DNA from: a bacterium
Lineage (GTDB): Bacteria > Patescibacteriota > Minisyncoccia > Phycocordibacterales > UBA2100
DNA length: 64,000 bases
Direction: 5' to 3'
NCBI GenBank assembly: GCA_030674455.1
Contig: JAUSGQ010000020.1
Coordinates: forward strand, 13,461-77,460
Shown piece after piece: positions 2,761-37,850 of this stretch. How positions within the stretch are numbered: the first letter of the stretch is position 1; every line of letters begins with the position of its first letter. Under the pieces are notes generated by a model, which was given only the letters and a program-made list of their open reading frames with translations, made no database searches and was not told where the DNA came from. Made by a program: the position numbers and the translations under genes.

Positions 2761-3339
2761 ATGAGCATCGTCAAACATCCGGAACAGCGCGTAGGCGTTT
2801 TTATTGATACGCAGAATCTATATCACAGCGCGAAAAACATTTATCATGCGCGCGTGAATTTTGGGAATGTGTTAAAAGATTCGGTCGCCGGCCGCCACCT
2901 CATCCGCGCGCGCGCCTACGTAGTCACCACCGAATCAGGGGAAGAGAAGGGTTTCTTTGAGGCGCTGGAAAAAATCGGCATCGAAACGAGAACCAAGGAT
3001 CTGCAAATATTTTTCGGGGGAGCAAAAAAAGCCGACTGGGACGTGGGGCTCGCAGTCGACGCGATTACCGCCGCTCCGAGCTTGGACACGGTCATCCTTT
3101 TTACCGGCGACGGCGACTTTATCCCCCTCGTCGAATACTTAAAGGTACACGACGGATGCCAGGTGGAGGTGGTTTCGTTCGGAAAAAGCACGTCCGGCCG
3201 TCTGAAAGAATCTGCAGACCACTTTTTGGACCTTGATATCGACCCGCGCCGCTACCTGTTGAACTATCGGCCTTCAAACTCTCGCCGCGCAAGCGAGAGG
3301 GATGTCAGTGTTACTTCTGACGAAGATTCTATAGCTTAA
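2761..3339 (+). CDS. NYN/LabA-like (DUF88) domain protein
   Basis: VGVFIDTQNLYHSAKN...ILFTGDGDFIPLVEYLK matches the NYN/LabA-like PIN-fold signature. Confidence 0.6.
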   Translation: MSIVKHPEQRVGVFIDTQNLYHSAKNIYHARVNFGNVLKDSVAGRHLIRARAYVVTTESGEEKGFFEALEKIGIETRTKDLQIFFGGAKKADWDVGLAVDAITAAPSLDTVILFTGDGDFIPLVEYLKVHDGCQVEVVSFGKSTSGRLKESADHFLDLDIDPRRYLLNYRPSNSRRASERDVSVTSDEDSIA

Positions 3340-3606: not shown

Positions 3607-3741
3607 ACCCGGTCAGTACAATGTGGCATGGTTTCTGTCGCAGTTCATGCTCACATTATTATTTTTTCCCGACATATACATTTGATTGTTTTTGTTGAAG
3701 AAGCCACAACCAAGACAATGCCACATTGTCCTACCGGGCAT
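3605..3741. repeat. TIR element family 'A' copy 2
   Basis: Left TACCCGGTCAGTACAATGTGGCAT (3606-3629) and right ATGCCACATTGTCCTACCGGGCA (3718-3740). Internal GTTTCTGTCGCAG and ACAACCAAGACAATGCC motifs are conserved. Confidence 0.75.
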
Positions 3742-3766
3742 GTTGTTATGGTAGCACGCTTTTGGA

Positions 3767-4780
3767 CTAGATTTTGAGATTGGTCTGTGCGCGGCGGGAA
3801 GAGATATAGGCGAACACAATGAATACAAGGCCGATGAGTCCGGTAATAATTTCAGGAACGTGAACAAAAATCCCCGCGAGCATGGAAAGTGCGAGGCCAA
3901 AAATCGCATAGTGCGCGCCATGCTCGAGGTAGGGGAGATTTTCCAGCGTCCGAGCCCGCACGAGTCCAACGGTAAATGCCCGCACGAATATTGCGCCGAT
4001 TCCGAGACCCGCGATGATGACTGGAAGATTGGAGGTAATCGCGAACGCGCCAACAACGCCGTCGAGAGAAAACGCGGAATCAAGGACGTTCAAGTACACA
4101 AAGAGTGCTGCCCCTCCCGCGACAGCCCCCGCGCTTGTTTCCGTTTGGAATGATTGCGCCACCCCTTCTATCACTATAAAAAGCACGGCGCCTATGAGGC
4201 CTGCGACAAGAATGGTCGCGGCTTCCGCCGGCAACAGGGCGGCGCAGATAAGTAGCGTCACAAGAACAATGGCGATTTCTATCGCCTCGATGCCGCCCCA
4301 GCGTGACATGTGCATTTCAATCGCTTCTATCCAATGCACTGTTTTCCTATCATTAAAAAAATATTTGAGCGAGACCAGGAGTAGGAACACGCTTCCGAAC
4401 GACGCGATTGCGACATGTGCATTCTCAAGTTGCTCGCCATACGAAACCGGGTCAAAAAATGCAAGGAGCGCCACTGCGATGGGAGAGAGGCCGGCGGCAG
4501 CCGCGACAATGAGTATCGGGAGGACGAAGCGAGTGCCAAAAACCGCGACCGGAATACCCCAGACAAGAAATCGCTTCTGCCAGATAGCGTCCATCCGCGC
4601 GAGCACTTTCGCGTTCACCACGGCGTTATCAAAGGAAAGCGTTGTTTCCAAAATCGCCAAAAGCGCAACAAGAAGTAAAGCGCTTAAACCGCCCCATATA
4701 TAAGCGGCAACAAGCACGATTGCGGAAAGAACCGCAGGAAAAACGAGGACTTTCATAGGAATGCCATCATGGTAGCACAA
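3767..4780 (-). CDS. Integral membrane protein (DUF475/TerC-like, multiple TM helices)
   Basis: About 8 hydrophobic helices. LSFDNAVV motif resembles the SxDN motif of DUF475/TerC-type membrane proteins. Confidence 0.45.
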   Translation of the reverse strand: MCYHDGIPMKVLVFPAVLSAIVLVAAYIWGGLSALLLVALLAILETTLSFDNAVVNAKVLARMDAIWQKRFLVWGIPVAVFGTRFVLPILIVAAAAGLSPIAVALLAFFDPVSYGEQLENAHVAIASFGSVFLLLVSLKYFFNDRKTVHWIEAIEMHMSRWGGIEAIEIAIVLVTLLICAALLPAEAATILVAGLIGAVLFIVIEGVAQSFQTETSAGAVAGGAALFVYLNVLDSAFSLDGVVGAFAITSNLPVIIAGLGIGAIFVRAFTVGLVRARTLENLPYLEHGAHYAIFGLALSMLAGIFVHVPEIITGLIGLVFIVFAYISSRRAQTNLKI

Positions 4781-4866
4781 AGCATGTTAGTTTTGAGTTG
4801 ACGCACCTATCCAGTACATTTGTCTTGTCTTGTTATAATCCAGATACCTATATACACTTTTGAAAT

Positions 4867-5349
4867 ATGCTTGATGTACCGAACAATACACGCAATCATG
4901 AAAGCCAGGAAGTGGCCTTGCCGGCTCTTACATCAGAACAAAAAGCTGAGAGAAATGCACGATTAAGATCAGTCGTAGGGGCAATTGATGATTTGACAAG
5001 AACATTGAGAATTCAGATACCAGATCCGGGTTTTCCTAAGATAGATGACCTTAAATTTGACGACAACCTGCAAGCGGCACAAATTAGAGCAGAGCTGACG
5101 ATTACCGGTCATCATAGATATGAAGACTTTCGGACAGGCCTTGCAAGAGACCCGGACATGAAAGCGCTTATTGGTGCATACAAAGTAGCCAATCGTCCAG
5201 AACACAGAAGAGTTATCGGCGAGAAGATACTAGTCTTGACGAACAAGAAAATTGAGGAAGCGAGGTTGCGTGGGGCACCATTTGAGGCCGCTACAACCGA
5301 CCCACTCACCGTAGATGACGTAAGGCGAATTATGAGAATTCATTTTTGA
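4867..5349 (+). CDS. Hypothetical protein
   Basis: 160-aa ORF in a coding-like region. No recognisable motif. Confidence 0.4.
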   Translation: MLDVPNNTRNHESQEVALPALTSEQKAERNARLRSVVGAIDDLTRTLRIQIPDPGFPKIDDLKFDDNLQAAQIRAELTITGHHRYEDFRTGLARDPDMKALIGAYKVANRPEHRRVIGEKILVLTNKKIEEARLRGAPFEAATTDPLTVDDVRRIMRIHF

Positions 5350-5417
5350 GCTATATGTACATTTGACGACTCTGCCAAACCCGTTATAATTGTGTTCTAA
5401 CAGGATAAGATATCGCT

Positions 5418-5657
5418 ATGTCCCAAAAAGTAATCGTCATTGGAAACTCGCTAGCTGTCACCATTCCCAAGGAAACCGCCAGGGAACTGCGCATCGAAGC
5501 GGGAGACCGCGTGGAAATTCGCGTTGATTCGCGCCGCAAGACTGTTTCGTTTCGTCCTGTGGAAAAAGCATCGCAGTCCGAGCAAAAAATCGCAAAGATG
5601 ACGGCGAATTTCATGCGCCGATACGACAATGACCTGCGCGAACTCGCTGGCAAGTAG
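5418..5657 (+). CDS. Antitoxin, AbrB/MazE (SpoVT-AbrB fold), partner of Doc
   Basis: N-terminus MSQKVIVIGNSLAVTIPKETARELRIEAGDRVEI is a typical swapped-hairpin AbrB/MazE antitoxin. Immediately upstream of the Doc gene (8-bp gap). Confidence 0.8.
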   Translation: MSQKVIVIGNSLAVTIPKETARELRIEAGDRVEIRVDSRRKTVSFRPVEKASQSEQKIAKMTANFMRRYDNDLRELAGK

Positions 5658-5665
5658 CATGTAGC

Positions 5666-6055
5666 ATGCGCTACCTCACTTCGTCTCAAATACTCCTCAT
5701 CCATTCCATGCTCATTGATGAGTACGGAGGTTCTCATGGGGTGCGCGATAGAAACCTGCTCGCGAGCCTTAGGCAATTGCCCGCGCAGACAGCATTTGGA
5801 AAGAATCTGTATCCAACGCTTTTTCTTAAATCCGCTTTGTACGTGCGCAATATCATAACGAGCCACCCGTTCCTTGATGGCAATAAGCGGAATGGTATCA
5901 CATGCGCCGCGATTTTTCTTGAAAATAACGGATACGTTTTTGACGCGAAAGTGGGGGAGCTTGAGAAGTACGCTGTCCTCATCGCCCGCGAGAAACCCGA
6001 ACTTGAAGAAATCGCCGAGTGGCTTAAAAAACACTCCAAACGCAACCGCCCTTGA
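5666..6055 (+). CDS. doc: Doc (death-on-curing) toxin, Fic/Doc family
   Basis: HPFLDGNKRNGITCAAIFL carries the Doc motif HxFx(D/N)GNKR. Size 129 aa. Confidence 0.85.
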   Translation: MRYLTSSQILLIHSMLIDEYGGSHGVRDRNLLASLRQLPAQTAFGKNLYPTLFLKSALYVRNIITSHPFLDGNKRNGITCAAIFLENNGYVFDAKVGELEKYAVLIAREKPELEEIAEWLKKHSKRNRP

Positions 6056-6146
6056 GGTTTAACCTCAAAGATATAACCTCAAAGATAGGGTTTATACACA
6101 AGGTAATTTATCTATCTCCGAAAGTTTAATCTTCGGAGGTTAGTGG
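6046..6146. repeat. Composite palindromic site P1 (TTGAGGTTTAACCTCAA + CTCCGAAAGTTTAATCTTCGGAG)
   Basis: Two adjacent hairpin-forming palindromes starting at the Doc stop codon. The same two modules recur at 6762-6875 and 7472-7545. Confidence 0.6.
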
Positions 6147-6711
6147 CTTTAAGTATGAGTTCAACGGCCTCTGCCAGATCGCTCGCAGTTTCATCTGGAC
6201 GATATGATTCTATCCAAGAATCAAGGTCTCGCTTTCCGTAGCCTGTCATCACCAATATTGTCCGACATCCGGCCCGCGCCCTCGCGCCGATGTCAATCGC
6301 CTTGTCGCCGATGAGTACGCAATTTTCTAGATCAAGATTGAGATCGCGGGCGGCGCGCTCTAGAAGTCCGGGGAGGGGCTTACGGCAATCGCATTGTCTC
6401 GTGTAATCGCCCTCGCCTGCCGTTGGATGGTGCGGACAGTAGTAAAAGTGATCTATCGAGGCACCAAAGTCTTTGAGTATTTCCGAGAACTGCTTGTGAA
6501 AAGAATCAACGTAATCTTGCATATAGTATCCGCGTGCAATACCCGACTGGTTTGAGACGATAATGACAGGGATGGAAAGTTCATTGACGCGCCGAAGCGC
6601 CGCGGCTGCGCCAGGAAGCAGCCGTATGTATTGAGGGCGATGTTCATAACCGTGTTCCTCGTTGATGACGCCGTCACGATCTAGAAACACCGCTTCAAGC
6701 GTTTTTGGCAT
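6112..6711 (-). CDS. D,D-heptose 1,7-bisphosphate phosphatase-like HAD-IIIA hydrolase (GmhB/histidinol-phosphatase family)
   Basis: FLDRDGVIN (DxDGT/V motif I), VSNQSGIARGY and GDKAIDIG, plus the Zn-binding C-x-H...C-x-C motif YYCPHHP...CDCRKP. Start moved to Met 6711 (MPKTLEAVFLDRDGV). Confidence 0.75.
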   Translation of the reverse strand: MPKTLEAVFLDRDGVINEEHGYEHRPQYIRLLPGAAAALRRVNELSIPVIIVSNQSGIARGYYMQDYVDSFHKQFSEILKDFGASIDHFYYCPHHPTAGEGDYTRQCDCRKPLPGLLERAARDLNLDLENCVLIGDKAIDIGARARAGCRTILVMTGYGKRDLDSWIESYRPDETASDLAEAVELILKATNLRRLNFRR

Positions 6712-6761
6712 AGGGCTTTTGACGCAGTGTACCTTTGCCTGCAACGGGCTGCAATCGATGT

Positions 6762-6875
6762 AATCTTTGAGGTTAAACCTCAATAGGAACAAGCAATATT
6801 TCACGAGCTGAAGAAATGCTTGGGGTACATCTGTCGCTAGCTACCTCCGAAGGTTAAGCCTTCGGAGGTTTTAGT
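6762..6875. repeat. Composite palindromic site P2 (TTGAGGTTAAACCTCAA ... ACCTCCGAAGGTTAAGCCTTCGGAGGTT)
   Basis: Inverted-order copy of the P1 modules on the other side of the HAD phosphatase gene. Confidence 0.6.
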
Positions 6876-6981
6876 TTATTGCGAATGCTATACTTAAATT
6901 CATGAACTGACTTGCAGAAATAAGTGGTGAGCCACTCGGAATCGAGTGATGTCGAACCATTATAAATAATCTCTAAACCAT

Positions 6982-7473
6982 ATGAATGTCAAAACATTTT
7001 ATTTTTATCTGAATGTCGTGTTATTTGCTATATGTTCAATTGTTTTTATCTTTATTTTCGGTAGAGGAATTCTAGTTATTATTGATGATTTTTCGCTATT
7101 ATATAGTCCGAATTATACTACTTCACAAGTTCTTACGTCTTTTTTGAAAATTCTAATCCATCTTCCAATCTCATTATTACTCACATTATACTTTGGAAAT
7201 AATATTTTAAAATCTCTCAAAAATAATGATTACTTAAGGAAGAAAAAATTTAAATTTGTTTTGCCCATTGTTGCATTTATACTTACAATCATAGGAATTT
7301 TGCTTCTGATTGGATATGGAATGATCTTAATTCAATCAGATCCCTCGATTACTGAAGTCGGTGAAGGTGTGGGGTTTGGTATTGTATTTTTATTTGTTGG
7401 AGGTTTGATAACTTCAACAGCATTTGGAATCATAGGATTTTTTATTGATAAACATTATATGAATCAAAACTAA
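6982..7473 (+). CDS. AT-rich hypothetical membrane protein
   Basis: 163 aa with 4-5 TM helices. The local composition (visibly AT-rich) differs from the surrounding DNA. Bounded by palindromic sites P2 and P3. Confidence 0.5.
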   Translation: MNVKTFYFYLNVVLFAICSIVFIFIFGRGILVIIDDFSLLYSPNYTTSQVLTSFLKILIHLPISLLLTLYFGNNILKSLKNNDYLRKKKFKFVLPIVAFILTIIGILLLIGYGMILIQSDPSITEVGEGVGFGIVFLFVGGLITSTAFGIIGFFIDKHYMNQN

Positions 7474-7545
7474 CCTCCGAAGGTTTAACCTTCGGAGGTT
7501 GACTTCCTCTATAATCATCTTTGAAGTTTTAACCTCAAGAAATAG
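7472..7545. repeat. Composite palindromic site P3 (AACCTCCGAAGGTT-T-AACCTTCGGAGGTT + TTGAAGTTTTAACCTCAAG)
   Basis: Perfect 14-bp-arm palindrome plus the TTAACCTCAA module. Confidence 0.6.
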
Positions 7546-7575
7546 AGTAATCTTGAGACTAAATCACATCGCCCT

Positions 7576-8034
7576 GTGTTAGAATTTAATCCAATGAGTA
7601 ACGAAACAGACCACAAAAAGATGGATCCAGTTTGGTTTTGGTGGGCTATTTTTACTGTAATTTATATTGCCTTTAATTTAAAGGGATTTCCTGTTAATTA
7701 CTTAAATCTTGGAGATTATCCAAATGGGTTGCCGTTAATGTCCTATATTGCTGCTTTTTTCGGTCTTTTTGCTCCATATGGAACTCTCTCATTTATTTCT
7801 CTCGTTACTAATCCATTATCTTGGGTTTCGTTCGTAATATTCTTTTTATTTATGAAATATATAAGTACATACATTAAAAAACATAGGTTCTCTAAATATC
7901 AAATTTTCTTTATCTGTTTATTGAGTCTTCTTTTAATTACAATCGTGGTTGATATAATTCGAGGCACACCTTTTGCGTCGTGGAATATCTTGTTTACAGG
8001 ACATTTACCACAACTTCCTAGTTATAGCTGGTAA
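7576..8034 (+). CDS. AT-rich hypothetical membrane protein
   Basis: 152 aa and multi-TM. AT-rich like 6982-7473. Confidence 0.45.
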   Translation: MLEFNPMSNETDHKKMDPVWFWWAIFTVIYIAFNLKGFPVNYLNLGDYPNGLPLMSYIAAFFGLFAPYGTLSFISLVTNPLSWVSFVIFFLFMKYISTYIKKHRFSKYQIFFICLLSLLLITIVVDIIRGTPFASWNILFTGHLPQLPSYSW

Positions 8035-8325
8035 ATTGACCCGGAGATAACGGTGCCGGCCACCCTAATGTGCCAAATCCCAGAAGTGGGTAACTGGCCT
8101 TATCAAAAGACTTTGCTAAACTGCCTTTTTTTGATATAGTTCGGTCATTAGTAAATAGCCGTGGTGTTTGGATAGGCCGAGTTAGTATTAAGCTGAAACC
8201 CCGAAGTAGAGTCCTCAATTTTTGATTACGTTGTCTGAGTTATCGGAGAACACAATCAGGAATTGAGCGCACCCCGAGGAGAAGGCTGGACTCACTACGG
8301 GGCAGGTCCGAACATCACCAAAGAA

Positions 8326-19243: not shown

Positions 19244-19696
19244 ATGGCTCAACCGTTCGACTATAAGTTCGGGCTCACCGAGATTATTCCCTCCAAGCAA
19301 TTAGACGACCGCGAAGGTCAAAAAGTGACCACCTTCAAGACACTTGTGGAGAAGACGATAACATCGGAGGTACTCAAATCCCTCGCTTTTCCTTCTAAAA
19401 GAGAGGTCTTTGTGTCGATAATGCAATTTTTTGCAAGCAAGAAGGAATATGAAAGCCGAGATATTGATAATATGTCAAAAACAGTTATGGACTGTCTCAA
19501 GGGTAAGCTTTACATTGACGACGCGCAGGTACGGACACTTTTGATAAGCAAAAAGATTTCTCCAAAGGTTCCGACGAACTTCGTGTTCGTTGGAATGAGG
19601 GAAATAAAGGGAGAAACAGATGTTGGCATCGTACAGAATAATTTGCTGGAACAGGCCGTTACCCTTTATCAGGCATCTGCGAAAGCGGTAGCATGA
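19244..19696 (+). CDS. rusA: RusA-like Holliday-junction resolvase (phage-type)
   Basis: SRDIDNMSKTVMDCLKGKLYIDDAQV matches the RusA catalytic signature (D-x-D-N...K...DD-x-Q-V). Confidence 0.65.
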   Translation: MAQPFDYKFGLTEIIPSKQLDDREGQKVTTFKTLVEKTITSEVLKSLAFPSKREVFVSIMQFFASKKEYESRDIDNMSKTVMDCLKGKLYIDDAQVRTLLISKKISPKVPTNFVFVGMREIKGETDVGIVQNNLLEQAVTLYQASAKAVA

Positions 19697-20968: not shown

Positions 20969-21256
20969 ATGAAAACCGTCATCAGCGTAAAGGTAGACAA
21001 AGACGTGCGCGACAGAGCGCGTAAGGTGGCACGGCAGATGGGCGTGCCTCTTTCAATGGTGGTCAACTCGGGGCTCCGGCAGTTCGCCCAAGAAGAGCGT
21101 ATCGTCTTTCAAACAGAAAAAGTCTACCGAATGACCAAAAAATTTGAGAAGAAGCTCGAGAAAATCGAGGCCGATATAAAGGCTGGACGAAATCTCTCGC
21201 CCGAATTTAAAACTGCTGCAGAAATGGACAGGTATCTTGATGGCCTGAAAAAATGA
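20969..21256 (+). CDS. dinJ: DinJ/RelB-family antitoxin
   Basis: KVDKDVRDRARKVARQMGVPLSMVVNSGLRQFAQEERIVF parallels the DinJ RHH N-terminus. Overlaps the toxin gene by 4 nt. Confidence 0.8.
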   Translation: MKTVISVKVDKDVRDRARKVARQMGVPLSMVVNSGLRQFAQEERIVFQTEKVYRMTKKFEKKLEKIEADIKAGRNLSPEFKTAAEMDRYLDGLKK

Positions 21257-21513
21257 TCATTCATACACATCGGTCATTTGAGAAAAAATACCTGAAATTA
21301 CAGGCGAAACTTCAAGATAAGTTCCGGGAACGTCGTGACTTGTTCATTGATTACCAGTTTCATCCATTGCTTGACAACCACGCTTTACACGGCGAGTGGC
21401 AGGGTTATCGAAGCATTAACGTTACCGGCGACTTTCGAGCAGTATTCAAACAAGAAAACAATATCGTAACTTTTGTTGATATTGATACGCACCACAAACT
21501 CTACGGCACATAG
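21253..21513 (+). CDS. yafQ: YafQ/RelE-family mRNA interferase toxin
   Basis: HPLLDNHALHGEWQGYRSINVTGDFRAVFKQENNIVTFVDIDTHHKLYG parallels YafQ (HPLQGSWKGYRDAHVEPDWILIY...RTGTHAALFG). Confidence 0.8.
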   Translation: MIIHTHRSFEKKYLKLQAKLQDKFRERRDLFIDYQFHPLLDNHALHGEWQGYRSINVTGDFRAVFKQENNIVTFVDIDTHHKLYGT

Positions 21514-27975: not shown

Positions 27976-28592
27976 TCCTGTTGGCCTCCTGTGGCCGGAG
28001 TCAGCGTTGTTTGTTGCACATTTTGAAGTGTCGCGCTATTCGGATCAAGCCCCGCTGGAGAAACCTGTGCTGGCGGAGGCGATGCCGGCACAAATGTGTT
28101 CAAGGGCGACCCTCCTCCGCTTGAGCCCATCATGCCAATCGCGATACCGGGAACAACAATCGGCCCGACCGGAAATACGACGCAAATGTAGGGAATACTT
28201 GTAAGCCCCAATAACCATTTGCCCGGAGCCGGAGGACCATTTTTATAGGTACGGGTGGCTAACGTCCATATATAGAGGCCGGGATTCGGCGACCCCACAA
28301 CGGAAATAGTGCCATAGGGAACGACACCAAACACAAAACATGGCCACACAAGGCTTGCTTTGCCTCCAAACGGATATGCGAGAGCCAAATTGGGCGCGCT
28401 AAGAAGAAGAGCGGCACAAATGAGAACTGCGGAAACAGGACGCCTGAACATGCTGTACATTCTAGCACTACGCGACTGGATACAGGTACATACAGCGAGG
28501 CCAAAATACCCGAGGTGCGACCTTGGGAGTGGCTCTTTAAGGTCGCACCTCGGGTATTTTGCTATGTTCGTTGCTGTGCTGTTGCTACTCAA
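27972..28592 (-). CDS. Hypothetical secreted protein
   Basis: Probable true start MYSMFRRPVSAVLICAALLLSAPNLALA (signal peptide) near 28455. Gly/Pro-rich. Confidence 0.4.
   Translation of the reverse strand: MSSNSTATNIAKYPRCDLKEPLPRSHLGYFGLAVCTCIQSRSARMYSMFRRPVSAVLICAALLLSAPNLALAYPFGGKASLVWPCFVFGVVPYGTISVVGSPNPGLYIWTLATRTYKNGPPAPGKWLLGLTSIPYICVVFPVGPIVVPGIAIGMMGSSGGGSPLNTFVPASPPPAQVSPAGLDPNSATLQNVQQTTLTPATGGQQD
28501..28558. promoter_or_regulatory. Perfect palindrome AAAATACCCGAGGTGCGACCTT-n14-AAGGTCGCACCTCGGGTATTTT between divergent genes
   Basis: 22-bp perfect arms. Lies between the likely starts of the divergent genes at 28455 (-) and 28564 (+). Confidence 0.5.
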
Positions 28593-29580
28593 CGCTATAC
28601 GCTATACCCTATACCTTATGCACTGGCTTCGCGAACACCGACACACCGTTGCGCTCATCGGGGCGGCTGTTTTTGTCGTAGTAGGCGGAATTCTCGCCAG
28701 AAACAATACTGGAGCTTCAGAACTCGGGAACATTAAAAATGTCGCTGTGGAATATCCTTACTACGCTCCTTCAGCAGATACAGAGGGCGTATCGGTAAAG
28801 AACCAGCGTACAAATCCGCAGAGTGCGGTTTCTGATATAGGCAGTTCAACGGCATCTCTCGCTGTTTTCTTTGACCGAGCATCAACGCCGGAACGGCCAC
28901 CGACAACATCTGTAACGCAAACCGCTACAAAAATCGTCCCGCAAACGCCGACTAAATCTCAAAGCACTATTACGAATTCTGCGTATTCGTCTTTCTTCCG
29001 CACGCTCTCGAATATTCTTTCTCCATCAGACACGCGAACACCGGAACAAAAAGAGCTTTATAATTACGGCAACGAGGTGGGCTCGATCGTAAAAACTTTT
29101 GAAAATAGCCATGGTAACCTGACGCAGGTGTTAAAAACGTTCTTCGACAGCCGCGTCGACCCCTCGAAAGCGGCTGCGACCCCTGAAATTGCCGATGCCT
29201 ACGCGCAATTGACGAGAGGAATTCCATCCTCAGCTGGCACAACTCCCGCCTCGGCAACCGCTGGAGTCCAATCCATCGCAAACGATTACGCACAATTGAG
29301 CTTCGCGATAGGGAGCATCGCAGATGTTCCTCCGCAAGCCGAAATCTTGAATGCGAAACTCGCCAAAGGATATGGGGACGTTGCACAAGGCATGTCCAAA
29401 CTTGCGAAAACTGACAATAATGATGCGCTTCTCGAGGCAATTAACTCTTATAACGCAACCGCGGAGGAATTTATCAGAACTTACGTCGCACTTGCGGATC
29501 TTTTTTCAGCATATGGAGTGAAATTCTCCGCGAGCGACCCGGGTTCAATTTTTTCTTTTAGTATGACTGGTGGGCTGTAG
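28564..29580 (+). CDS. Hypothetical membrane-anchored extracytoplasmic protein
   Basis: Start taken at MFVAVLLLL (N-terminal TM) just after the palindrome. Ser/Thr/Ala-rich exported domain. Confidence 0.45.
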   Translation: MFVAVLLLLNAIRYTLYLMHWLREHRHTVALIGAAVFVVVGGILARNNTGASELGNIKNVAVEYPYYAPSADTEGVSVKNQRTNPQSAVSDIGSSTASLAVFFDRASTPERPPTTSVTQTATKIVPQTPTKSQSTITNSAYSSFFRTLSNILSPSDTRTPEQKELYNYGNEVGSIVKTFENSHGNLTQVLKTFFDSRVDPSKAAATPEIADAYAQLTRGIPSSAGTTPASATAGVQSIANDYAQLSFAIGSIADVPPQAEILNAKLAKGYGDVAQGMSKLAKTDNNDALLEAINSYNATAEEFIRTYVALADLFSAYGVKFSASDPGSIFSFSMTGGL

Positions 29581-29860
29581 CGAAATACCCAAGGTCACAA
29601 ATGCGCGCATAGCGTGGCGGCCTGTCATAGTCGAGCGTAGCGAAGCAATCCAATTCCTTTCTTCTGGATTGCTTCGCGTTGCTCGCAATGACGATTCTTC
29701 GAAGGTTAAATTTTCCCCTATTGGTCGAAACTGTGGTCAGTTTCGACACGATTTTTGCTCCGTGGAGTACCACGGAAAAAATCGCCTACTGCCTAGTGCT
29801 TTTTCTTTTCCTTACTGCGTTTAGACCTCTTGCCTATTCATTGGATGTTATAATTTTCAT

Positions 29861-30703
29861 GTGGAAAACAAACACGCGAACGATGCGGGGTTTATTTTGA
29901 CGTGGCGAGATCGTCTGGGAATTTCATTCTCGCCGATGCTCATCGCCGCCGTTCTTTCCGTCGCGGTTTTATTAATTGCAATCGGCTGGCAGGCCAATAA
30001 AACTATCGTAACGGCAAATCCCGGAGCTTTTACCGGTTCGGGGAAGGTATCTTCCGCCCAAAATCAAACCGGGAGCGGAACAATTACAGAAATGAACTAT
30101 ATCGCACTCGCAGACGAAGCAGGTCCGAATGATTTCTCGAACACCGAAAGCGACGTTTTTGGACAACTTTTCGGAACATATATTAGCCTCAAAAATTCGG
30201 GAACGTACACAGAGGAGAAAGGGGCTGACCTGGCCAATCGCATAGCCGAGGCAACGGTGGCGCAGGTTGAATACACGCCTATTGCGAGGAGCGAAATAAA
30301 AACCGATTCCGACGTCTCTCGCGAACGAGTTCTTGCATATAGAAATGACTTGCAAACCGCTCTTGCGCCTTTTTTAACGAAGTCCGAATCGGAACTCGGA
30401 ATTTTTAACAGCTATGTACAAACGGGAGATAAGCACAACCTTGAGCTTTTGGCAGATGCTGCGGGGAAATATCGCAAAACTGTTTCTCTGCTCTCCGCAG
30501 TGACCGTACCGCAAGACGCGATTGATTATCACCTGGGAATCACGAACTCTCTTTTGCAGTTCGCAGTAACTCTTGATGCGATGATAAAAAATGCGGATGA
30601 CCCGATGGCTACTCTTGCCCTCTTGCGCACATACAATTCCGCTGAAGATAGCGTGTACACATCGTTCAGCTCCCTTGCTTCCTACGAAAAGCGAAAAATA
30701 TGA
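29861..30703 (+). CDS. Hypothetical membrane-anchored protein (T4SS-like cluster)
   Basis: N-terminal TM LIAAVLSVAVLLIAIGW. 4-nt overlap with the next gene suggests an operon. Confidence 0.45.
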   Translation: MENKHANDAGFILTWRDRLGISFSPMLIAAVLSVAVLLIAIGWQANKTIVTANPGAFTGSGKVSSAQNQTGSGTITEMNYIALADEAGPNDFSNTESDVFGQLFGTYISLKNSGTYTEEKGADLANRIAEATVAQVEYTPIARSEIKTDSDVSRERVLAYRNDLQTALAPFLTKSESELGIFNSYVQTGDKHNLELLADAAGKYRKTVSLLSAVTVPQDAIDYHLGITNSLLQFAVTLDAMIKNADDPMATLALLRTYNSAEDSVYTSFSSLASYEKRKI

Positions 30704-32442
30704 CTCCCATTAGAGACCGCGGAAGTTTAGTCTGTGTCCATTCAACGGATGTTTTTCATTGGTCTATTGCTTACGGGCAATTGCTTTTGAGTCGGAAGCG
30801 CAAACTTCCTACTTCTAACGGGACAGGTAACAAATATTCTTTCATCGCCCTGTGGTGCGCGCTGGCAATATTCGCAGCGCCCGCAGGCGTTTACGCGCAA
30901 CTTACAGCAAACGATGACCCCATGGAAAATTGCAGTATATATGGCGCCCAATCAATGAGCGTGGGCTCTATCGCAACGCTCGGAGGCGGAGTTGTGCCGG
31001 TGAGCGACGCGGCCGTTACTCTGAATACCGGAATGCTCGTCTACAAAGAATGCATCGTTCGCAAAATAATAGACGCAAAAAAGAAAGCCGCGATAGCGCA
31101 ACTTATAAGCGATTCTTCAAAAACATATCTGAAAGGACGAGAGGTCTGCACAGTGGACATTGACGGCAATAGAACATGCGAAACGACCAGTCCGTATTTT
31201 CCCGAAGATCTGGCGGCCGACCAGCGGCTGTGGGAGAGCAATGTTGTCAACCAAAACATAAGCGGCGGGCTATCAAATTCTCTAAATCCTGCGTATCAGA
31301 ACGACCTGCGGCTTGCCCTCAATCGCTCCTATCAGCAACAAATCCAGAATCCGGGCGCATCGCTCGCCTGTTCGTATACGGGAGACCTCGTCGCTCTTAA
31401 CAACGGTGCATACGACGGTCCGCAGTCATTGTTTGCGGTCGGCGACCCCAACTGCAATCCTCTCTTCAATTATTACAATTACCAAAGTTCCGTCATGAGC
31501 ATCGCGGCCGCCGACACAGCAAACAGGATGACCCGCCTTGGCTGGAACAATGGCACGTATGACGTCGAGTACAGGGATCCCGCGACCGGACGAGTGCGCG
31601 TCGTTACGCCCGGATTCATAGTAGCGGGAACTTTCCAACAGCAACTCGGCTCGAATTTCCGACAGCTTGAAAATGCCAACGACATAGGACAATTGATAAA
31701 CGTATTCTTCGCCGGAATAGGGAACCTTGCTATTTCGGCCACAGCTCAAGGGCTTAACGCGCTTATCAATTCCTCCGTCGGGACATCTTTCGTTGACAGG
31801 ATGGTGCAAGACTTCGGTGCGGAACAATCAGCCGCGCAGACCGGCGCAGCTCTACAGAATCTCCAGGCGGCGGTCTATAACGAGAGTCAATATCTCGCGG
31901 CAAAAAATGCGACGAAGGACGTGTTGATGCAGGCCGCGACAAGTTTGCGCGATGCGGAAAACCTATGTTGGAGCCGGATAGTTCCTCTGGTAACGACGTA
32001 TGCGCAACAAAACAGCATCGCTCAAATACAGATAGCGACAACGTCAGAGCAATGGGCGCAAAAAGTCATAGAAAACAACAACAATAGTCTCGTTAGGCTG
32101 GCGGCTTCTCTAAACACCGAAGCTACTGCCGCCTCCACAGCGCTTGACCGTCTCAATGAAATCAGTGCCGGAGTAACTAACAACACTATTAGTGGAACCG
32201 ACGGCTACAATCAACTCAACGCCATCGTTTCAACCCTCCCTACACAGGCCGACGTGCAGGGCGCACAAGAGCAAACGCAGACCATGCAAACAAATCTTGG
32301 GACACTTGTTCAGGGAACCCTGACAGCCTGGCAAGGAAATGCAGACCCTACTGTCGGCTGGTGCAATGTCAATACTCCCGCCGTGATTAAAGGATGGGCA
32401 GACAAATGGAGCGGGAGCAGCAGCATCTATGACCACCGATAA
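30700..32442 (+). CDS. Hypothetical secreted protein (T4SS-like cluster)
   Basis: Signal peptide FIALWCALAIFAAPAGVYAQ followed by 580 aa of Asn/Gln/Thr-rich sequence. Operonic with the VirB6-like gene. Confidence 0.45.
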   Translation: MTPIRDRGSLVCVHSTDVFHWSIAYGQLLLSRKRKLPTSNGTGNKYSFIALWCALAIFAAPAGVYAQLTANDDPMENCSIYGAQSMSVGSIATLGGGVVPVSDAAVTLNTGMLVYKECIVRKIIDAKKKAAIAQLISDSSKTYLKGREVCTVDIDGNRTCETTSPYFPEDLAADQRLWESNVVNQNISGGLSNSLNPAYQNDLRLALNRSYQQQIQNPGASLACSYTGDLVALNNGAYDGPQSLFAVGDPNCNPLFNYYNYQSSVMSIAAADTANRMTRLGWNNGTYDVEYRDPATGRVRVVTPGFIVAGTFQQQLGSNFRQLENANDIGQLINVFFAGIGNLAISATAQGLNALINSSVGTSFVDRMVQDFGAEQSAAQTGAALQNLQAAVYNESQYLAAKNATKDVLMQAATSLRDAENLCWSRIVPLVTTYAQQNSIAQIQIATTSEQWAQKVIENNNNSLVRLAASLNTEATAASTALDRLNEISAGVTNNTISGTDGYNQLNAIVSTLPTQADVQGAQEQTQTMQTNLGTLVQGTLTAWQGNADPTVGWCNVNTPAVIKGWADKWSGSSSIYDHR

Positions 32443-32448
32443 ATCGTT

Positions 32449-34965
32449 ATGAAAAAAATCCTCACATTAGGTTTTTTGACAATAGCACTGCTCATTACTG
32501 CTGCACCTGAGTTGGCTACAGCACAATCCGCACAACCCGAGTGGTGGGAATTAGCGAGGAACACTGCATGGTGTGGGACTTTAGGACTTCTTGATCCATC
32601 CTGCTGGATTAAATTAATCGCCGTCGTAGGCGGCACCATCTTGGTTAATTTAGCAGCATTGCTTTTGGGACTGGCGGATATGCTGTTCGGATGGACGTTT
32701 GATAACACGGTACTTTTATTCAAAACAGAGATATTTCAAAAGGCGGAAGAGGGAATAAACGCCGGTTGGACGGCACTTCGTGACATCGCGAATATCGTCA
32801 TAATCGGAATGCTCACCTTTACTGCAATCTCGACAATCCTCGGGATACAGGAATATGCCGCAAAGAAATTTCTCGCTCGCGTGCTTATAATAGCGGTGCT
32901 CATAAACTTCAGCTTACTTTTTACAAAACTTATTATTGACGCTTCCAACTTTACCGCAGGGCAGTTCTACGCGGCGGCGGCCGGAACATCCTTAGGCGGA
33001 GCGATGGATGATGCAACAAAGCGCAGCAGCGGCCATAAGGCCGACATCGCGGCACCCGAGACATCCTTTCGAAAGACCGGTATTTCCGGCGCATTCATGC
33101 GATTTTCAAGAGCGACGAGCATTAGCGGCACTGGGGGAAGCTTATTTAGGACTGCTTATAGCGATGCTGGTGGTGCACTCATGGCACTCGGGCAGGCCGT
33201 TCTTGCGGTGATACTACTGGGCGGAGCCGCGTTAGTTCTTTTCTATGGCAGTTATCTCCTCATATCCCGCGCTTTGCTGTTTATTTTTCTTATGATTACC
33301 GCGGCTGGCGCATTCGCGACCTACCTCATCCCCGGAATGAGCGACAGTAGGTATGGATGGAAGGGCTGGTGGTCGTCGCTTTTGCACAATGCCGCTCTTG
33401 CCCCCATTTTAATGGTACTGATATGGGTAACAATCCAGGTGTCCTCAAAAATGTCGGACATGAGAGAGGGTGCCGGGGGAACCCTCGGGACATTGGCCGA
33501 CCCCAAGCTCTTGTCCTCGGCTGATGGAGGGGTTTCATCGATAAGTGAGCTATTCTCCTTTATCGTAATTATAGGATTGCTCTACGCTTCTTTCCTTCTT
33601 GCGAGCAAATGGGCGGGGAAGGTGGGCGGTCTCAGCATGGCGTCAATGGCATTAACCGTTCCATTCAACCTCGGCTCGCAAGCGGTAGGATTCGCTCTCA
33701 AAAAAGGATTGGGCGGCGGAGCCGCATTAATTGAAAAGAAGATTGGCGCGAAGCAAGGAAAACTAAGGGATAGACTGGCTCGTTACCCCGACATGTCGCC
33801 TGCCAGAAAGAGCACAATCCAGGCTGGCATCGATAAGTATGCGTGGCAAAAGGGACTTGCCGGACGGTTTGCAAAACAGAATTACAATCCTATTGCACAA
33901 CTTGCAAAGACAAAGTTGGGCCAAACGGTCGCAAAGCAAGCCGGATTTACCAGCCCGATATCTGCCGGCGACGCGAAGTCTAATTTTGCAGATGATGCGA
34001 AAAAGGTAACTGAAGCCGCTGTAGCGCGCGCAGAAGCTGCGTACCAGTTCTCTACGAGCGATCAGAGAAAAATGCGTGAAAAGGAAGAGGCAAGACGAAG
34101 AAAAGAATGGCAGGAACACAAACAATTGCTCACCGAACAGGCAGTACTGGCAGCAAGAACTGCCGAAGCATCGGAACAACAGACGCAAAGAGAGAAAGCC
34201 AGATTGGAGCTTGAAAAACAACTGGTTGTGAGAGAAGCGACAGACAAAAAGACAAATGAAAATCTTGCGCCTAAAAAAGCCGTCGCGGAAGATAATCTAA
34301 AGACTGTAACGAAAGATGCGACGGCGCAAAAGGCAACCGTGGCTCTCACCTCGGACACATTAATCAAGAAACTCCAGGACGAACTAAGCCATGCCCAGAC
34401 GCCTGACCAAACAAAGGAAATAACCGGTAAGATAAAGAGCGCGGTGGCGGAAAAACAAGCGGCAATTGATGAGCAAGATGTGAGGATAAGAGACGCACAG
34501 AAAGCCGTAAAAGATATTGAGAATAGAATCGGTGAAATAGACAGGGATGCGAGAAAAGAAACACAAGAACTTGATGAATCTCTTTCACACTATGAAGAAA
34601 ATGCGGTTCGTGATGCGAGAAGGAGCAAGGGGCTCAACGAAAGGCTTAGAAAGGAAGATAACAAGGAAGAAACTGGACAACTTGATATTGATATTTCAAG
34701 AGCGGCGGAGAGAGTAGTGCAACGGTCAATTGATGCCGTTAAAAAACCGGGCGCGGAAGCGGCGGAAAGATATGCAGCCAATAGGATATCTGCTCTCGGA
34801 TTTGGGGCCTATGTCGGAGGAAAGGCGAAGACAATGTATGAAGACAAACAGGGTAAGACTAGGATTAAGAAAGACCTCGAAACGTATCTTGAAGATATGT
34901 TGAAACCAGAAAGTGCATCCACGGTGGCGCCGACTCCGCCGGCAACCCCAGGGACAACCGCTTGA
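32449..34965 (+). CDS. VirB6/TrbL-like polytopic membrane protein with long C-terminal coiled-coil
   Basis: N-terminal signal, then about 6 TM helices over ~400 aa, as in TrbL/VirB6. The C-terminal 400 aa are charged coiled-coil (EKARLELEKQLV...). Lies upstream of the PrgI-like and VirB4-like genes. Confidence 0.45.
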   Translation: MKKILTLGFLTIALLITAAPELATAQSAQPEWWELARNTAWCGTLGLLDPSCWIKLIAVVGGTILVNLAALLLGLADMLFGWTFDNTVLLFKTEIFQKAEEGINAGWTALRDIANIVIIGMLTFTAISTILGIQEYAAKKFLARVLIIAVLINFSLLFTKLIIDASNFTAGQFYAAAAGTSLGGAMDDATKRSSGHKADIAAPETSFRKTGISGAFMRFSRATSISGTGGSLFRTAYSDAGGALMALGQAVLAVILLGGAALVLFYGSYLLISRALLFIFLMITAAGAFATYLIPGMSDSRYGWKGWWSSLLHNAALAPILMVLIWVTIQVSSKMSDMREGAGGTLGTLADPKLLSSADGGVSSISELFSFIVIIGLLYASFLLASKWAGKVGGLSMASMALTVPFNLGSQAVGFALKKGLGGGAALIEKKIGAKQGKLRDRLARYPDMSPARKSTIQAGIDKYAWQKGLAGRFAKQNYNPIAQLAKTKLGQTVAKQAGFTSPISAGDAKSNFADDAKKVTEAAVARAEAAYQFSTSDQRKMREKEEARRRKEWQEHKQLLTEQAVLAARTAEASEQQTQREKARLELEKQLVVREATDKKTNENLAPKKAVAEDNLKTVTKDATAQKATVALTSDTLIKKLQDELSHAQTPDQTKEITGKIKSAVAEKQAAIDEQDVRIRDAQKAVKDIENRIGEIDRDARKETQELDESLSHYEENAVRDARRSKGLNERLRKEDNKEETGQLDIDISRAAERVVQRSIDAVKKPGAEAAERYAANRISALGFGAYVGGKAKTMYEDKQGKTRIKKDLETYLEDMLKPESASTVAPTPPATPGTTA

Positions 34966-34977
34966 TATACTGGCAAT

Positions 34978-35715
34978 ATGAACGACGACAAAAAATTAGA
35001 CGATATTCTCAAAGAGCGGCTCGCGAGCTTGCCATTGCCAGTGCGTAATGCGATTACGTCAGCAGACGTAGAAAAAGGTCTGCGCGAACTTGCCGACAAA
35101 CACAAACTTCACTTGGACCAGTGGGAAACCTTAGAGAATGCGGTAATGTTAACGCTTATCGGCTTCAAAAAGATAGCTGATTTGAGCGAAAACATCGAGA
35201 AAGAAGTCGGCGTAGACGCAGAGACAGCGCGAGCTATTGCGTCGGATATCACGGTTATTGTTTTTGAACCAATCCGCAAAGAGTTAGAGCGCGAACTGGG
35301 AGAACCGGTGACGGAAGAAGTTGGTGAAACGACCACCGTTGCTGAAGAACCCGCGCCAGTGGAAAAACCTATCGCGGAAAAACCGGTATCCAGTGAGTCC
35401 ATACTGAATACAGAATACCGGATACCGAATACTATTCCCGCGCGGGAAATAATCGATAACCTTCCTCCGCGGCCGATTGAAGTTAAGCCCGCAAATCAGC
35501 CCGCAGCCGGTAACCCGCAGCCGGTAGTCAGAGAAGCGGCTTCCATACAGAATACAGAATACAGAATACCAAATACATCTCCTTCTACTCCGCCTCCAGC
35601 TCCGCTAATGGCAAAATCAGTGCGCGCCGTTCCGTCGCCCGCGTATGCGCTGGACACGAAAAGCCACGAGCGCACAGCTATCGACGACGATCCATATAGG
35701 GAGTCGATAGCATAG
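34978..35715 (+). CDS. Hypothetical protein with internal repeat (NTEYRIPNT x2)
   Basis: 245-aa ORF. ESILNTEYRIPNTIP and ASIQNTEYRIPNTSP are internal repeats. Confidence 0.4.
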   Translation: MNDDKKLDDILKERLASLPLPVRNAITSADVEKGLRELADKHKLHLDQWETLENAVMLTLIGFKKIADLSENIEKEVGVDAETARAIASDITVIVFEPIRKELERELGEPVTEEVGETTTVAEEPAPVEKPIAEKPVSSESILNTEYRIPNTIPAREIIDNLPPRPIEVKPANQPAAGNPQPVVREAASIQNTEYRIPNTSPSTPPPAPLMAKSVRAVPSPAYALDTKSHERTAIDDDPYRESIA

Positions 35716-36146
35716 GTGTCAGGTTCCAGGTTTTAGGTTCCAGACAAAAATGCAAAGCATCAATTCGTACAAAGACCTTATAGTGTGGCAAAAAGCTATT
35801 GATGTTGTCGCTGACACATATGCCATCACGCGAAAGTTCCCGTCTTTTGAGAACTTCGGACTTTCATCACAGATGCAACGAGCTGCTGTTTCCATCGCCG
35901 CGAATATCGCGGAGGGACGTGGCCGCGGGACACGAACCGATTACGCGCATTTTTTGGATATATCGAATGGATCAGTATCGGAACTGGAAACGTTGCTAAC
36001 AATTGCGAAGCGTTTGTCGTACTGTAGAGAAGAACAGTGTAGTAGAATGGAGGAGCAGTTAGGTGAAATCGGGAAAATGCTCGGTACTTTGCGTGCTAAG
36101 TTACGACGCTTCTCCTAACACCTGAAACCTGTCACCTACAACCTAC
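35715..36146. mobile_element. IR-flanked mini-element carrying a four-helix-bundle gene (copy 1)
   Basis: Left GGTGTCAGGTTCCAGGTTTTAGGTTCCAG and right CTAACACCTGAAACCTGTCACCTACAACCTAC are imperfect inverted repeats. The same IR words occur without cargo at 36599-36725 and 48926-49030. Confidence 0.45.
35750..36118 (+). CDS. Four-helix-bundle protein (PF05635-like, '23S rRNA intervening-sequence protein' family)
   Basis: YKDLIVWQKAIDVV...SQMQRAAVSIAANIAEG...FLDISNGSVSELETLL matches the family signature. Confidence 0.7.
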   Translation: MQSINSYKDLIVWQKAIDVVADTYAITRKFPSFENFGLSSQMQRAAVSIAANIAEGRGRGTRTDYAHFLDISNGSVSELETLLTIAKRLSYCREEQCSRMEEQLGEIGKMLGTLRAKLRRFS

Positions 36147-36151
36147 CCAAT

Positions 36152-36598
36152 ATGCAATTCCAAGTTCCGCAATTTATAGAGGTTGAAGATAAGATTTTCG
36201 GGCCTCTTACTTTTAAGCAGTTCGTGTATGTCGCGGGCGGGCTTGGCACGTGCTATCTCTTCTGGAAAATTCTGCCTGTGCTCATATCGGTTCCGCTCAT
36301 TGCGGTGACAGCTGCGCTTGCGGCCGTTCTCGCGTTTTTCCAATTCAACGGAAGACCGTTTGTCGCCGCGCTCGAGCACGGCTTCTATTTTCTTTTGCGG
36401 AGCAAACTCTACCTCTGGAGGAATGATGAGAATGGAAGGGAACAGGCGGCAACAAAAAAACAGCTTCTGGACAAACAGGCGCAGGAAAAGGGGAAATCTC
36501 TCGTATATATTCCGAGCCTTTCCAACAGCAAACTGCACGATTTAGCCTGGAGCCTAGATATAAAAGAACAAATCGCCGAGAGCGAGGCGAGTGAATAG
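36152..36598 (+). CDS. PrgI/VirB3-like small conjugal-transfer membrane protein
   Basis: IEVEDKIFGPLTFKQFVYVAGG followed by two TM helices matches the PrgI-family architecture. Immediately upstream of the VirB4 homolog. Confidence 0.5.
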   Translation: MQFQVPQFIEVEDKIFGPLTFKQFVYVAGGLGTCYLFWKILPVLISVPLIAVTAALAAVLAFFQFNGRPFVAALEHGFYFLLRSKLYLWRNDENGREQAATKKQLLDKQAQEKGKSLVYIPSLSNSKLHDLAWSLDIKEQIAESEASE

Positions 36599-36725
36599 GT
36601 GATAGGTTCCACCCAGTAGGTGATTCTGCTAAATCAGGTGCTAGGTACTAGGTTAAAATCAAAACAATGAAACTTCAAGAAATCCATCTCCCTGACACCT
36701 GTAACCTGACACCTATAACCTAATC
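36599..36725. repeat. Empty copy of the GGTG.(T)AGGT ... CCTGACACCTGTAACCT inverted-repeat element
   Basis: GGTGATAGGTTCCACCCAGTAGGTGATT...CTGACACCTGTAACCTGACACCTATAACCT, with no cargo ORF. Confidence 0.45.
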
Positions 36726-36727
36726 CT

Positions 36728-37378: not shown

Positions 37379-37850
37379 ATCCGAAATCCGAAGCACGAAA
37401 TCCGAAAAAATCCTAAATCCAAATATGAAAAAAGAAGACCGGAAATATGACTTGGAAGAAAGAAGTTTCTTGTTCGCAAAGAACGTGCGGGCCTTTGTGA
37501 AAAACTTGCCACGTTCCATTACCAGTATAGAAGACACGAAGCAACTTGTGCGGTCATCTGGGTCAATTGGCGCAAATTATATTGAAGCGAACGAGTCGTT
37601 GAGCAAGAAAGATTTTTTGCTACGAATACGCATCGCGCGAAAAGAGGCAAAGGAAAGCAAATATTGGCTACGACTCATAGATACCAATACTGATGGCTTA
37701 GAAAAGCGACGAGCGGAACTAGAACAGGAAGCCACAGAATTGATGATGATTTTAAGTTCGATTATGAGAAAATATGTTTAAAATTTCTTTCTTTTTTGGT
37801 TTTCGGCATTTTTTCGGATTTCGGATTTCGGATTTCGTGCTTACTATATA
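37379..37850. mobile_element. IR-flanked mini-element carrying a second four-helix-bundle gene, inserted in the VirB4 homolog
   Basis: Left AAATCCGAAATCCGAAGCACGAAATCCGAAAAAATCC and right GGCATTTTTTCGGATTTCGGATTTCGGATTTCGTGCTTAC are imperfect inverted repeats. Confidence 0.5.
37425..37781 (+). CDS. Four-helix-bundle protein (PF05635-like), copy 2
   Basis: ERSFLFAKNVRAFVKNLPRSI...RSSGSIGANYIEANESLSKKDFLLRIRIARKEAKESKYWLRL is the same family as 35750-36118. Start taken at MKKEDRKYD. Confidence 0.65.
   Translation: MKKEDRKYDLEERSFLFAKNVRAFVKNLPRSITSIEDTKQLVRSSGSIGANYIEANESLSKKDFLLRIRIARKEAKESKYWLRLIDTNTDGLEKRRAELEQEATELMMILSSIMRKYV

Follow-up and report, generated by a model that had tools for sequence, protein, structure and literature searches.

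What kind of element places the same pair of hairpin-forming palindromes three times within a small part of a bacterial genome, next to genes that relatives lack? The question is raised by a stretch of 64,000 nt (hereafter, the window) of contig JAUSGQ010000020.1 (assembly GCA_030674455.1, forward-strand positions 13,461 to 77,460), from a member of the Patescibacteriota, or Candidate Phyla Radiation (CPR). There, three composite sites, each made up of a palindrome (module A) and a second hairpin (module B), lie in an island of genes between the gene for the toxin Doc and pnp, the gene for polynucleotide phosphorylase (PNPase). The explanation that we favor, and in which our confidence is evenly divided, is that the sites are modules resembling repetitive extragenic palindromic (REP) sequences and bacterial interspersed mosaic elements (BIMEs), that the feet of their hairpins are breakpoints at which the cargo of the island is turned over, and that they belong to a CPR family tied to Y1 enzymes of the HUH class.

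Anatomy and placement of the three composite sites

The full form of palindrome A, rebuilt from its first and second copies (A1 and A2), is ATCTTTGAGGTT-N-AACCTCAAAGAT, and the consensus of hairpin B is AACCTCCGAAGGTT-N-AACCTTCGGAGGTT. Each of the three sites in the window (6052-6141, 6763-6870, and 7472-7538) contains one of each (Table 1). The A modules are 17-25 nt and the B modules 28-29 nt long and, with a spacer of variable length between them, the composite repeat comes to roughly 70-110 bp. Both modules have the core AGGTT-N-AACCT (in its wider form, RAGGTT-N-AACCTY), which is found four times in the window versus an expectation of 0.06, and B is itself built of two inverted copies of AACCT-N4-AGGTT. 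The copies are preserved to different degrees: B3 is a perfect 14-1-14 palindrome, B2 has one mismatch, and B1 is degenerate; the A pattern is exact at 6052-6068 and 6767-6783, and has three mismatches at 7522-7538 (the degenerate A3). Three matches to A are observed versus 0.23 expected in shuffled sequences. For B, when up to three mismatches are allowed, there are 35 matches in the window, 12 of which are inside the three sites, and no shuffle reached 35. The feet of the hairpins read CTA(N)CCTCC / GGAGGTTAG. Weak residual homology between the spacers of sites 1 and 3 indicates that A, spacer, and B behave as one unit. When folded as single-stranded DNA, in either strand, each site forms two to three separate hairpins and A never pairs with B; site 2 folds as three independent hairpins (z = -5.1).

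Profile searches (nhmmer) revealed no further significant copy of A or B in the 64 kb (next best E = 0.25), so that the three sites are packed into 1.5 kb and the remaining 62 kb is without any. The window contains no Rfam match at the gathering score and no tRNA or tmRNA gene; sub-threshold matches to the Rfam His_leader family over site 3 (30 bits vs. 49) were judged to be spurious. An array of the tandem interspaced guide RNA (TIGR) or CRISPR type was considered and dismissed, because the sites are about 700 bp apart and separated by whole genes, which does not suit such an array. An independent assembly of 4,465 bp (Logan contig from SRR13727527, L001; L numbers are our labels for compared loci) corresponds to window positions 3709-8173; its genes are in an identical order, and none of the three sites is missing. 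This assembly stops at the two edges of the variable region, perhaps because the strains in that sample are heterogeneous.

Table 1. Features of the island and its borders, in window coordinates
Feature	Position	Strand	Remarks
Strain-specific insertion	4745-5362	+	160-aa open reading frame (ORF; 4867-5349) between TerC and MazE; without palindromes
MazE-type antitoxin	5418-5657	+	Pfam MazE_antitoxin, 43 bits
Doc toxin	5666-6055	+	Pfam Fic/DOC, 55 bits
A1	6052-6072		Palindrome TTGAGGTT-T-AACCTCAAAGAT; contains Doc stop TGA (6053-6055) in left arm
A1, extra direct copy of right arm	6075-6086		
B1	6114-6141		Degenerate hairpin ATCTCCGAAAGTT-T-AATCTTCGGAGGTT; phosphatase ORF runs through it, with TAG at 6112-6114
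HAD-IIIA / GmhB-like phosphatase (cargo 1)	6112-6711	-	NCBIfam HAD-SF-IIIA, 109.7 bits (cut-off 44.6)
Site 2	6763-6870		A2 6763-6783; unrelated middle hairpin 6790-6822; B2 6843-6870
memb1 (cargo 2)	6982-7473	+	163-aa hydrophobic ORFan, GC 0.27; TAA 7471-7473 overlaps foot of B3
Site 3	7472-7538		Inverted relative to sites 1 and 2; B3 7472-7500, 16-nt spacer, A3 7517-7538
memb2 (cargo 3)	7594-8034	+	146-aa membrane protein, GC 0.32
Unique GC-rich 62 nt	8038-8099		Strain-only; ends at right insertion junction; without A or B module
Conserved pnp leader	8100-8322	+	CATTAGTAAATAGCCGTGGTG...; right border of hotspot; PNPase start at 8323

An earlier note, made from the letters of the window alone, had described three palindrome-plus-hairpin sites here, the first of them starting at the Doc stop codon, and had them bracket a minus-strand HAD-IIIA phosphatase gene and an AT-rich membrane-protein gene, in a block of foreign composition. 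The sites are present where it placed them, the stop codon of Doc indeed falls within the left arm of A1, and the identity of the genes was confirmed with Pfam and NCBIfam. The claim of foreign composition stands in part. It is correct for memb1 and memb2 (GC 0.27, z = -6.1, and GC 0.32, z = -4.9, respectively, vs. 0.50 +/- 0.04 in 47 other ORFs) and incorrect for the phosphatase gene, which has a host-like GC of 0.51 (z = +0.3) and is strain-specific by synteny alone.

The phosphatase scores 158 bits against the NCBIfam GmhB equivalog, under the cut-off of 178. Its best homologues are just 55-60% identical, in contrast to the 92% identity of relatives of the PNPase, and its gene is missing from this locus in all relatives compared. 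The nine closest homologues stop 1-8 residues past a conserved LL, whereas the protein of the window continues for another 11 residues (TNLRRLNFRR), a tail encoded by B1. A search of 5.8 billion proteins retrieved for memb1 only its own product, an ORFan without a traceable donor. The product of memb2 belongs to a small family of proteins of about 135 aa from low-GC CPR genomes, with 60 representative homologues, the best of them 45% identical; one carries the name Campbellbacteria and another is from a contig with 36% GC (L023). No palindromes are found beside the homologue in L023, and travel of palindromes with the memb2 family was not seen. The two membrane proteins each have several hydrophobic segments, and the idea that they are paralogues was rejected (BLASTP E = 0.11). 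We also discarded a phage or plasmid origin of the island, as blastn against 50,697 records of phages and 72,556 of plasmids gave no match.

The stop codon of Doc is in the left arm of A1, that of the phosphatase gene is just past B1, and that of memb1 is over the foot of B3, and the boundaries of the AT-rich blocks coincide with the feet of site 3. Gene orientations are mixed (the phosphatase gene on the minus strand, memb1 and memb2 on the plus strand); site 2 is flanked by the starts of the phosphatase gene and memb1, and no site accompanies memb2.

With A1 after the Doc gene, B1 after the phosphatase gene, and B3 after memb1 (and a similar layout in a relative, L026, described below), the hairpins could be terminators or RNA-stabilizing stem-loops, one per gene at the convergent junction of Doc and cargo, that are carried along passively. 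B2 (plus strand) and B3 (minus strand) match a terminator scan, and the one occurrence of the hairpin core in a Firmicute (see below) is a textbook terminator. However, the T-runs found by the scan are on the opposite strand or, for B2, behind no gene, there is no T-run after A1, B1, or B3 in the direction of the preceding genes, and site 2 is upstream of both of its neighbors. Independent terminators would not be expected to have a common core, homologous spacers, and paired arm changes, and in other CPR genomes the hairpins occur inside ORFs. The earlier note had pointed to intrinsic terminators after many genes as the case that would speak against it; with none of the other genes in the 64 kb carrying these hairpins, a role as generic terminators in this genome is unlikely. 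We consider the terminator explanation unlikely, although it is the strongest of the alternatives.

The perfect dyad symmetry and the conserved core of 11-13 bp could also be those of operators, to which a dimeric protein recognizing AGGTT-N-AACCT would bind and so regulate the island genes, and a start codon follows 55 nt past the end of both A2 and A3. This is very improbable in our judgment, given that A1, B1, and B3 are at gene 3' ends, the island has no regulator gene, the arms (12-20 bp) are far longer than those of typical operators, and copies in other genomes are in frame within genes. The 55-nt distance itself is exact in both cases (to the ATG of the phosphatase gene at 6711, minus strand, and to that of memb2 at 7594), and a TTG-type -35-like hexamer is found 12-14 nt past both A2 and A3. 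The spacing may be a coincidence, or it may indicate an element at a fixed position upstream of promoters.

An insertion hotspot between Doc and pnp

The PNPase of the window is closest to those of Kaiserbacteria/Paceibacteria metagenome-assembled genomes. We compared the pnp neighborhoods of about ten relatives whose PNPases are 86-92% identical to it, and found at least seven different contents in the gap between TerC/Doc and pnp. The TerC-pnp interval is empty in L017, L025, and L018/19, and comprises only MazE-Doc in L014/15. To this pair is added a 404-aa gene in L024, a 188-aa gene in L026, and Phd-PemK, TrmB, and a 55-aa ORF in L027/28. In L030-32 the interval holds an 88-aa GIY-YIG gene and in L016 two other genes; in the window, it holds the 160-aa ORF, MazE-Doc, the phosphatase gene, memb1, and memb2. 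The MazE-Doc pair (present in L014, L024, L026, and L027, and absent from L017, L025, L018, and L030) forms a conserved flank on the left of the variable gap. Relative to L014, the window has an extra 2.06 kb (from 6041 to about 8099), with similarity returning at 8102-8125 in the pnp leader, and every A and B module sits within the strain-specific segment, at internal seams. The Doc-pnp gap is a true insertion hotspot, and in this respect the suggestion of the earlier note was right.

The pnp leader that forms the right border contains a 25-nt inverted repeat (8214-8238 / 8243-8267), and it is between the arms of this repeat that the 88-aa GIY-YIG gene of L030-L032 is found (5694-5960 in L030). 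To the left of MazE, the insertion that carries the 160-aa ORF is absent from L014, in which positions 7038 and 7080 correspond to window positions 4744 and 5363; this ORF has no Pfam or NCBIfam match and a GC3 z of -2.2. The idea that A1 truncated the Doc gene, which came from the 135-aa Doc of L014, was withdrawn, as the Doc proteins of L024, L026, and L027 have 129 aa, like that of the window.

One relative has an orthologous site with different cargo. In L026 (GCA_030648875.1), a composite site (A-like plus B) directly follows the Doc stop codon and is orthologous to site 1. Its A-type module, TAAGCGCCACTTCTAAGGTT-A-AACCTTAGAAGTGGCGCTTA (5069-5109), is perfectly palindromic over 41 nt; it shares the core found in the window, and its arms differ from those of the window by paired changes, so that dyad symmetry is kept. 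The spacer is AT-rich and homologous to that of site 1, and the B module, ACCTCCGAAAGTTTAACCTTCGGAGGT (5130-5156), has the GAAAG mismatch in common with B1. Similarity between the window and L026 is lost no more than about 3 nt from the B stem. Past this point, L026 has a different minus-strand cargo gene, encoding 188 aa, with a GC of 0.40 versus 0.52 for the locus. Thus, two strains with flanking genes ~79% identical keep the site and differ past its foot.

A conserved site with changing cargo raises the possibility of true cassette recombination, which the earlier note had favored in the form of a small attC-like array. The Doc-side site would be a landing pad (attI-like), incoming genes would each bring a composite site at their 3' end (attC-like), and some recombinase encoded elsewhere would swap them at the hairpin feet. 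In addition to the orthologous site of L026, where similarity ends at the B foot, it would explain why three of the four composite sites have B toward the 3' end of a cargo gene (the phosphatase gene, memb1, and the 188-aa gene of L026), why stop codons are in or at the sites, why the GC of the cargo differs (and is mostly low), and why the remaining 62 kb contains no such site. Likewise, the attC sites of integrons form hairpins next to the 3' ends of individual foreign genes, can contain stop codons, and leave a conserved site next to variable cargo. However, no integrase or other recombinase is encoded in the window, and the sites fold as two or three independent perfect hairpins each rather than as a single bulged R''-L''/L'-R' stem, with no extrahelical bases and no R/L boxes; the sole match to GTTRRRY is GTTAAGC in B2, located in the loop rather than the foot. 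Cassettes as a rule have one orientation and a site at each 3' end; here orientation is mixed, one site is between two gene starts, and memb2 is without a site. Furthermore, the hotspot variants L024, L027, L014, and L030 have cargo and no composite site, the related hairpins in other genomes are not tied to foreign DNA, and the memb2 homologue of L023 has no site beside it. We thus rejected the attC/integron interpretation on the basis of fold, gene orientation, and the lack of an integrase in the window, and we regard cassette sites of any such kind as improbable.

Related hairpins in other CPR genomes and the link to Y1 enzymes

A scan for the exact B core, CTCCGAARGTTNARYCTTCGGAG, in one genome per species (185,579 species) yielded 12 loci, 11 of which are in CPR bacteria (Moranii-, Kaiser-, Nomura-, and Saccharibacteria, and Parcubacteria). 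Because the B-core pattern is palindromic, a few chance matches among natural hairpins are to be expected; the enrichment in CPR is beyond chance. The sole locus outside CPR, in a Firmicute (Peptoniphilaceae, L002), is a textbook A-tract/T-tract terminator. Several of the loci have 2-4 diverged copies. Some of the hairpin copies in CPR lie within long stop-free spans (i.e., inside ORFs) and others are intergenic, and there is no GC anomaly beside the related CPR hairpins in any locus. The A pattern, TTGAGGTTNAACCTCAAAGAT, has just three exact matches in 241 million metagenome records, one of which is a doublet inside an ORF. Neither the A nor the B pattern is present in the IMG/VR viral contigs.

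Two of the 12 loci have a hairpin no more than 60 nt from a Y1 gene, which is far above chance. In the first (L003), a 228-aa ORF matches Pfam Y1_Tnp with 34.4 bits (gathering cut-off 23). A B-type hairpin, CCTCCGAAGGTTGAACCTTCGGAGG, is located 21 nt upstream of its ATG and an A-core hairpin, GGAGGTTGAACCTCC, 25 nt past its stop codon. Doublets of A-core hairpins (GGAGGTTCAACCTCC-5 nt-GGAGGTTGAACCTCC) are in frame in the Y1 gene and in the adjacent methyltransferase gene. The second locus (L012) has a Y1 ORF that is 60% identical to that of L003, with a hairpin at the equivalent upstream position that shows compensatory stem changes and a conserved leader. Another hairpin is in frame within the Y1 gene, and directly downstream of the gene is an inverted doublet (CCGAAGG-CTAAA-CCTTCGG, then CCGAAGG-TTTAG-CCTTCGG) that resembles a REPIN, an inverted pair of REP sequences. 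The only NCBIfam match of the two Y1 proteins is the REP-associated tyrosine transposase (RAYT) family, at 33 and 23 bits versus a cut-off of 80. By analogy, the layout of L003 and L012 is a REPtron-like arrangement; REPtrons are known from the literature, as are in-frame REP insertions within tnpA(REP) genes and other genes, the latter for TnpA-Y1 subclass 2.4 (PMC6006769).

Some further details of these loci are worth recording. At 2190-2226 and 3260-3296, L003 has an identical 35-nt palindromic doublet, and in both of the genes concerned, those of the Y1 transposase and the methyltransferase, which are unrelated, the peptide GGSTS(L/I)(M/R)EVEPP has been added. In the Kaiserbacteria genome RIFCSPHIGHO2_02_FULL_49_16 (L011), a B-type hairpin (528-550) is at the 5' edge of what appears, by eye, to be a truncated MetE-like C-terminal fragment (..WINPDCGLKTR..), directly after an in-frame stop codon; this would be a further case of a hairpin at a gene-rearrangement boundary. 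The doublet of L021 is at most a possible insertion into KsgA: on comparison with the KsgA of the window, the natural sequence there proved to be similar and the L021 contig to be cut.

REP/BIME-like modules as candidate breakpoints

The way in which such modules might work can be outlined as follows. The palindromes would fold into hairpins on single-stranded DNA, and a Y1 enzyme encoded elsewhere would recognize the conserved apex and nick and rejoin the strand at the hairpin foot. This activity would copy modules locally, and would make the hairpin feet preferred breakpoints at which adjoining DNA can be exchanged, added, or lost. Incidentally, the hairpins would provide stop codons and probably also transcript ends. 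The anatomy of the repeat, its confinement to the island, the hotspot, the L026 site with other cargo, the restriction to CPR, and the link to Y1 genes in two other genomes are observed; action of a Y1 enzyme on the sites of the window, and a causal role of these sites in cargo turnover as opposed to mere accompaniment, are inferred.

Several observations weigh against this explanation. A Pfam scan of the window found no integrase, transposase, or Y1 gene among about 66 ORFs (and tblastn no remnant of a Y1 gene, with a best E of 0.99). The A and B modules are absent from about 100 kb of syntenic DNA of relatives other than L026. In the species-level scan, no genome has more than two exact-core loci, and classical REPs are far more abundant than this. 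None of the three A-type metagenome matches has a B module adjoining it. The genomes in which the Y1 link was seen are of the Moraniibacteriota type, and their hairpins have just the core in common with A and B. The feet of A and B do not have the 5' GT[AG]G tag that marks canonical REPs. Finally, the cargo could have been turned over by ordinary homologous recombination between the conserved flanks, with the hairpins as bystanders.

The comparison with known systems is instructive in both directions. As with the REP, BIME, and REPIN elements and RAYTs of E. coli, Pseudomonas, and Stenotrophomonas, we find short GC-rich palindromes of 20-40 nt, mosaics, inverted doublets and, in L003 and L012 only (not in the window), hairpins that flank a single Y1 HUH gene. 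REPs, too, are often at gene 3' ends, where they can act as transcript ends. Unlike REPs, the modules of the window are perfect or near-perfect palindromes, occur at very low copy number, and are clustered in one island rather than dispersed; the CPR Y1 proteins are far below the NCBIfam RAYT cut-off, and the window is without a Y1 gene. The modules also lack the tetranucleotide tag at the foot, which for canonical REPs is given as 5' GT[AG]G (or CGTC) in two papers (PMC6006769; PMC3733652).

The ends of IS200/IS605 elements and palindrome-associated transposable elements (PATEs) are similar in that subterminal hairpins are read by a Y1 enzyme on single-stranded DNA and cleaved near the foot, and in that no target-site duplication is seen, as is also the case in the window. 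They differ in that no tnpA or tnpB lies between the hairpins of the window, and there is no conserved cleavage tetranucleotide at a fixed distance (based on the four sites compared). The strand on which an enzyme would act is undefined because the A and B hairpins are symmetrical, unlike IS200/IS605 ends. Rickettsia palindromic elements (RPEs), which Ogata and colleagues are said to have reported in 2000, are palindromic repeats that are reportedly inserted in frame into protein genes, adding a peptide segment. The C-terminal tail of the phosphatase, and the segments GGSTS..EVEPP and FRRLNLRK in L003/L012, are comparable. RPEs are 100-150 bp long and occur in another lineage than CPR, and we know of no transposase partner for them. 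The locus also has much in common with core-gene integration hotspots, in which one interval (here TerC/Doc to pnp) has many contents, including toxin-antitoxin pairs and the small genes that are typical of mobile DNA. What sets it apart is that, in two variants, the cargo borders on a conserved structured repeat.

A bolder version of the REP/BIME-like explanation can be formulated, although we think it at least as improbable as the cassette sites discussed above, if not marginally more so. It would see the sites as a CPR hairpin platform for gene exchange, similar to an integron but run by a single-strand HUH (Y1) enzyme, with the Doc-side site as landing pad and with single genes, bounded by the two-hairpin module, being inserted, inverted, or swapped at the feet.

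Other parts of the window have features of separate interest. The block at 28360-43603, in which most ORFs have no Pfam match, resembles a cluster for type IV secretion or a conjugation-like process: at 36152-36598 it encodes a protein of the PrgI family, and at 37855-39762 a P-loop ATPase of the TraG/VirB4 type. Within it is a 23S_rRNA_IVP / bAvd-like four-helix protein (35750-36118). A second low-GC ORF pair at 54602-55275 (GC 0.38, z about -3.2), which has no Pfam match and, on checking, no flanking palindromes, may be another small foreign insertion. There is a RelB/YafQ toxin-antitoxin pair at 20969-21513, with a RusA resolvase gene nearby (19244-19696). The segment 43744-48925 encodes an R3H protein, yidC, and rnpA, followed by dnaA (46228-47613) and dnaN (47828-48925), and the window likely covers the region of the replication origin.

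Genomes of CPR bacteria (Patescibacteria) are tiny. To our knowledge, few mobile elements have been described for them, and little is understood of the routes by which they obtain surface and membrane genes that are specific to a strain. No description of REP or RAYT elements in Patescibacteria was found in the literature searched, and we see the feature as apparently new for the lineage: REP/BIME-like and REPtron-related, with an unusual link to strain-specific cargo. The locus provides a concrete and testable case, in that a conserved structured repeat is located exactly where the cargo changes between strains. If the explanation that we favor is true, it would extend REP/RAYT-type systems to CPR and tie such systems to gene turnover, not to the proliferation of repeats alone. 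If the bolder reading, that of a gene-exchange platform, were true, these bacteria would have a second, independent hairpin-based cassette system.

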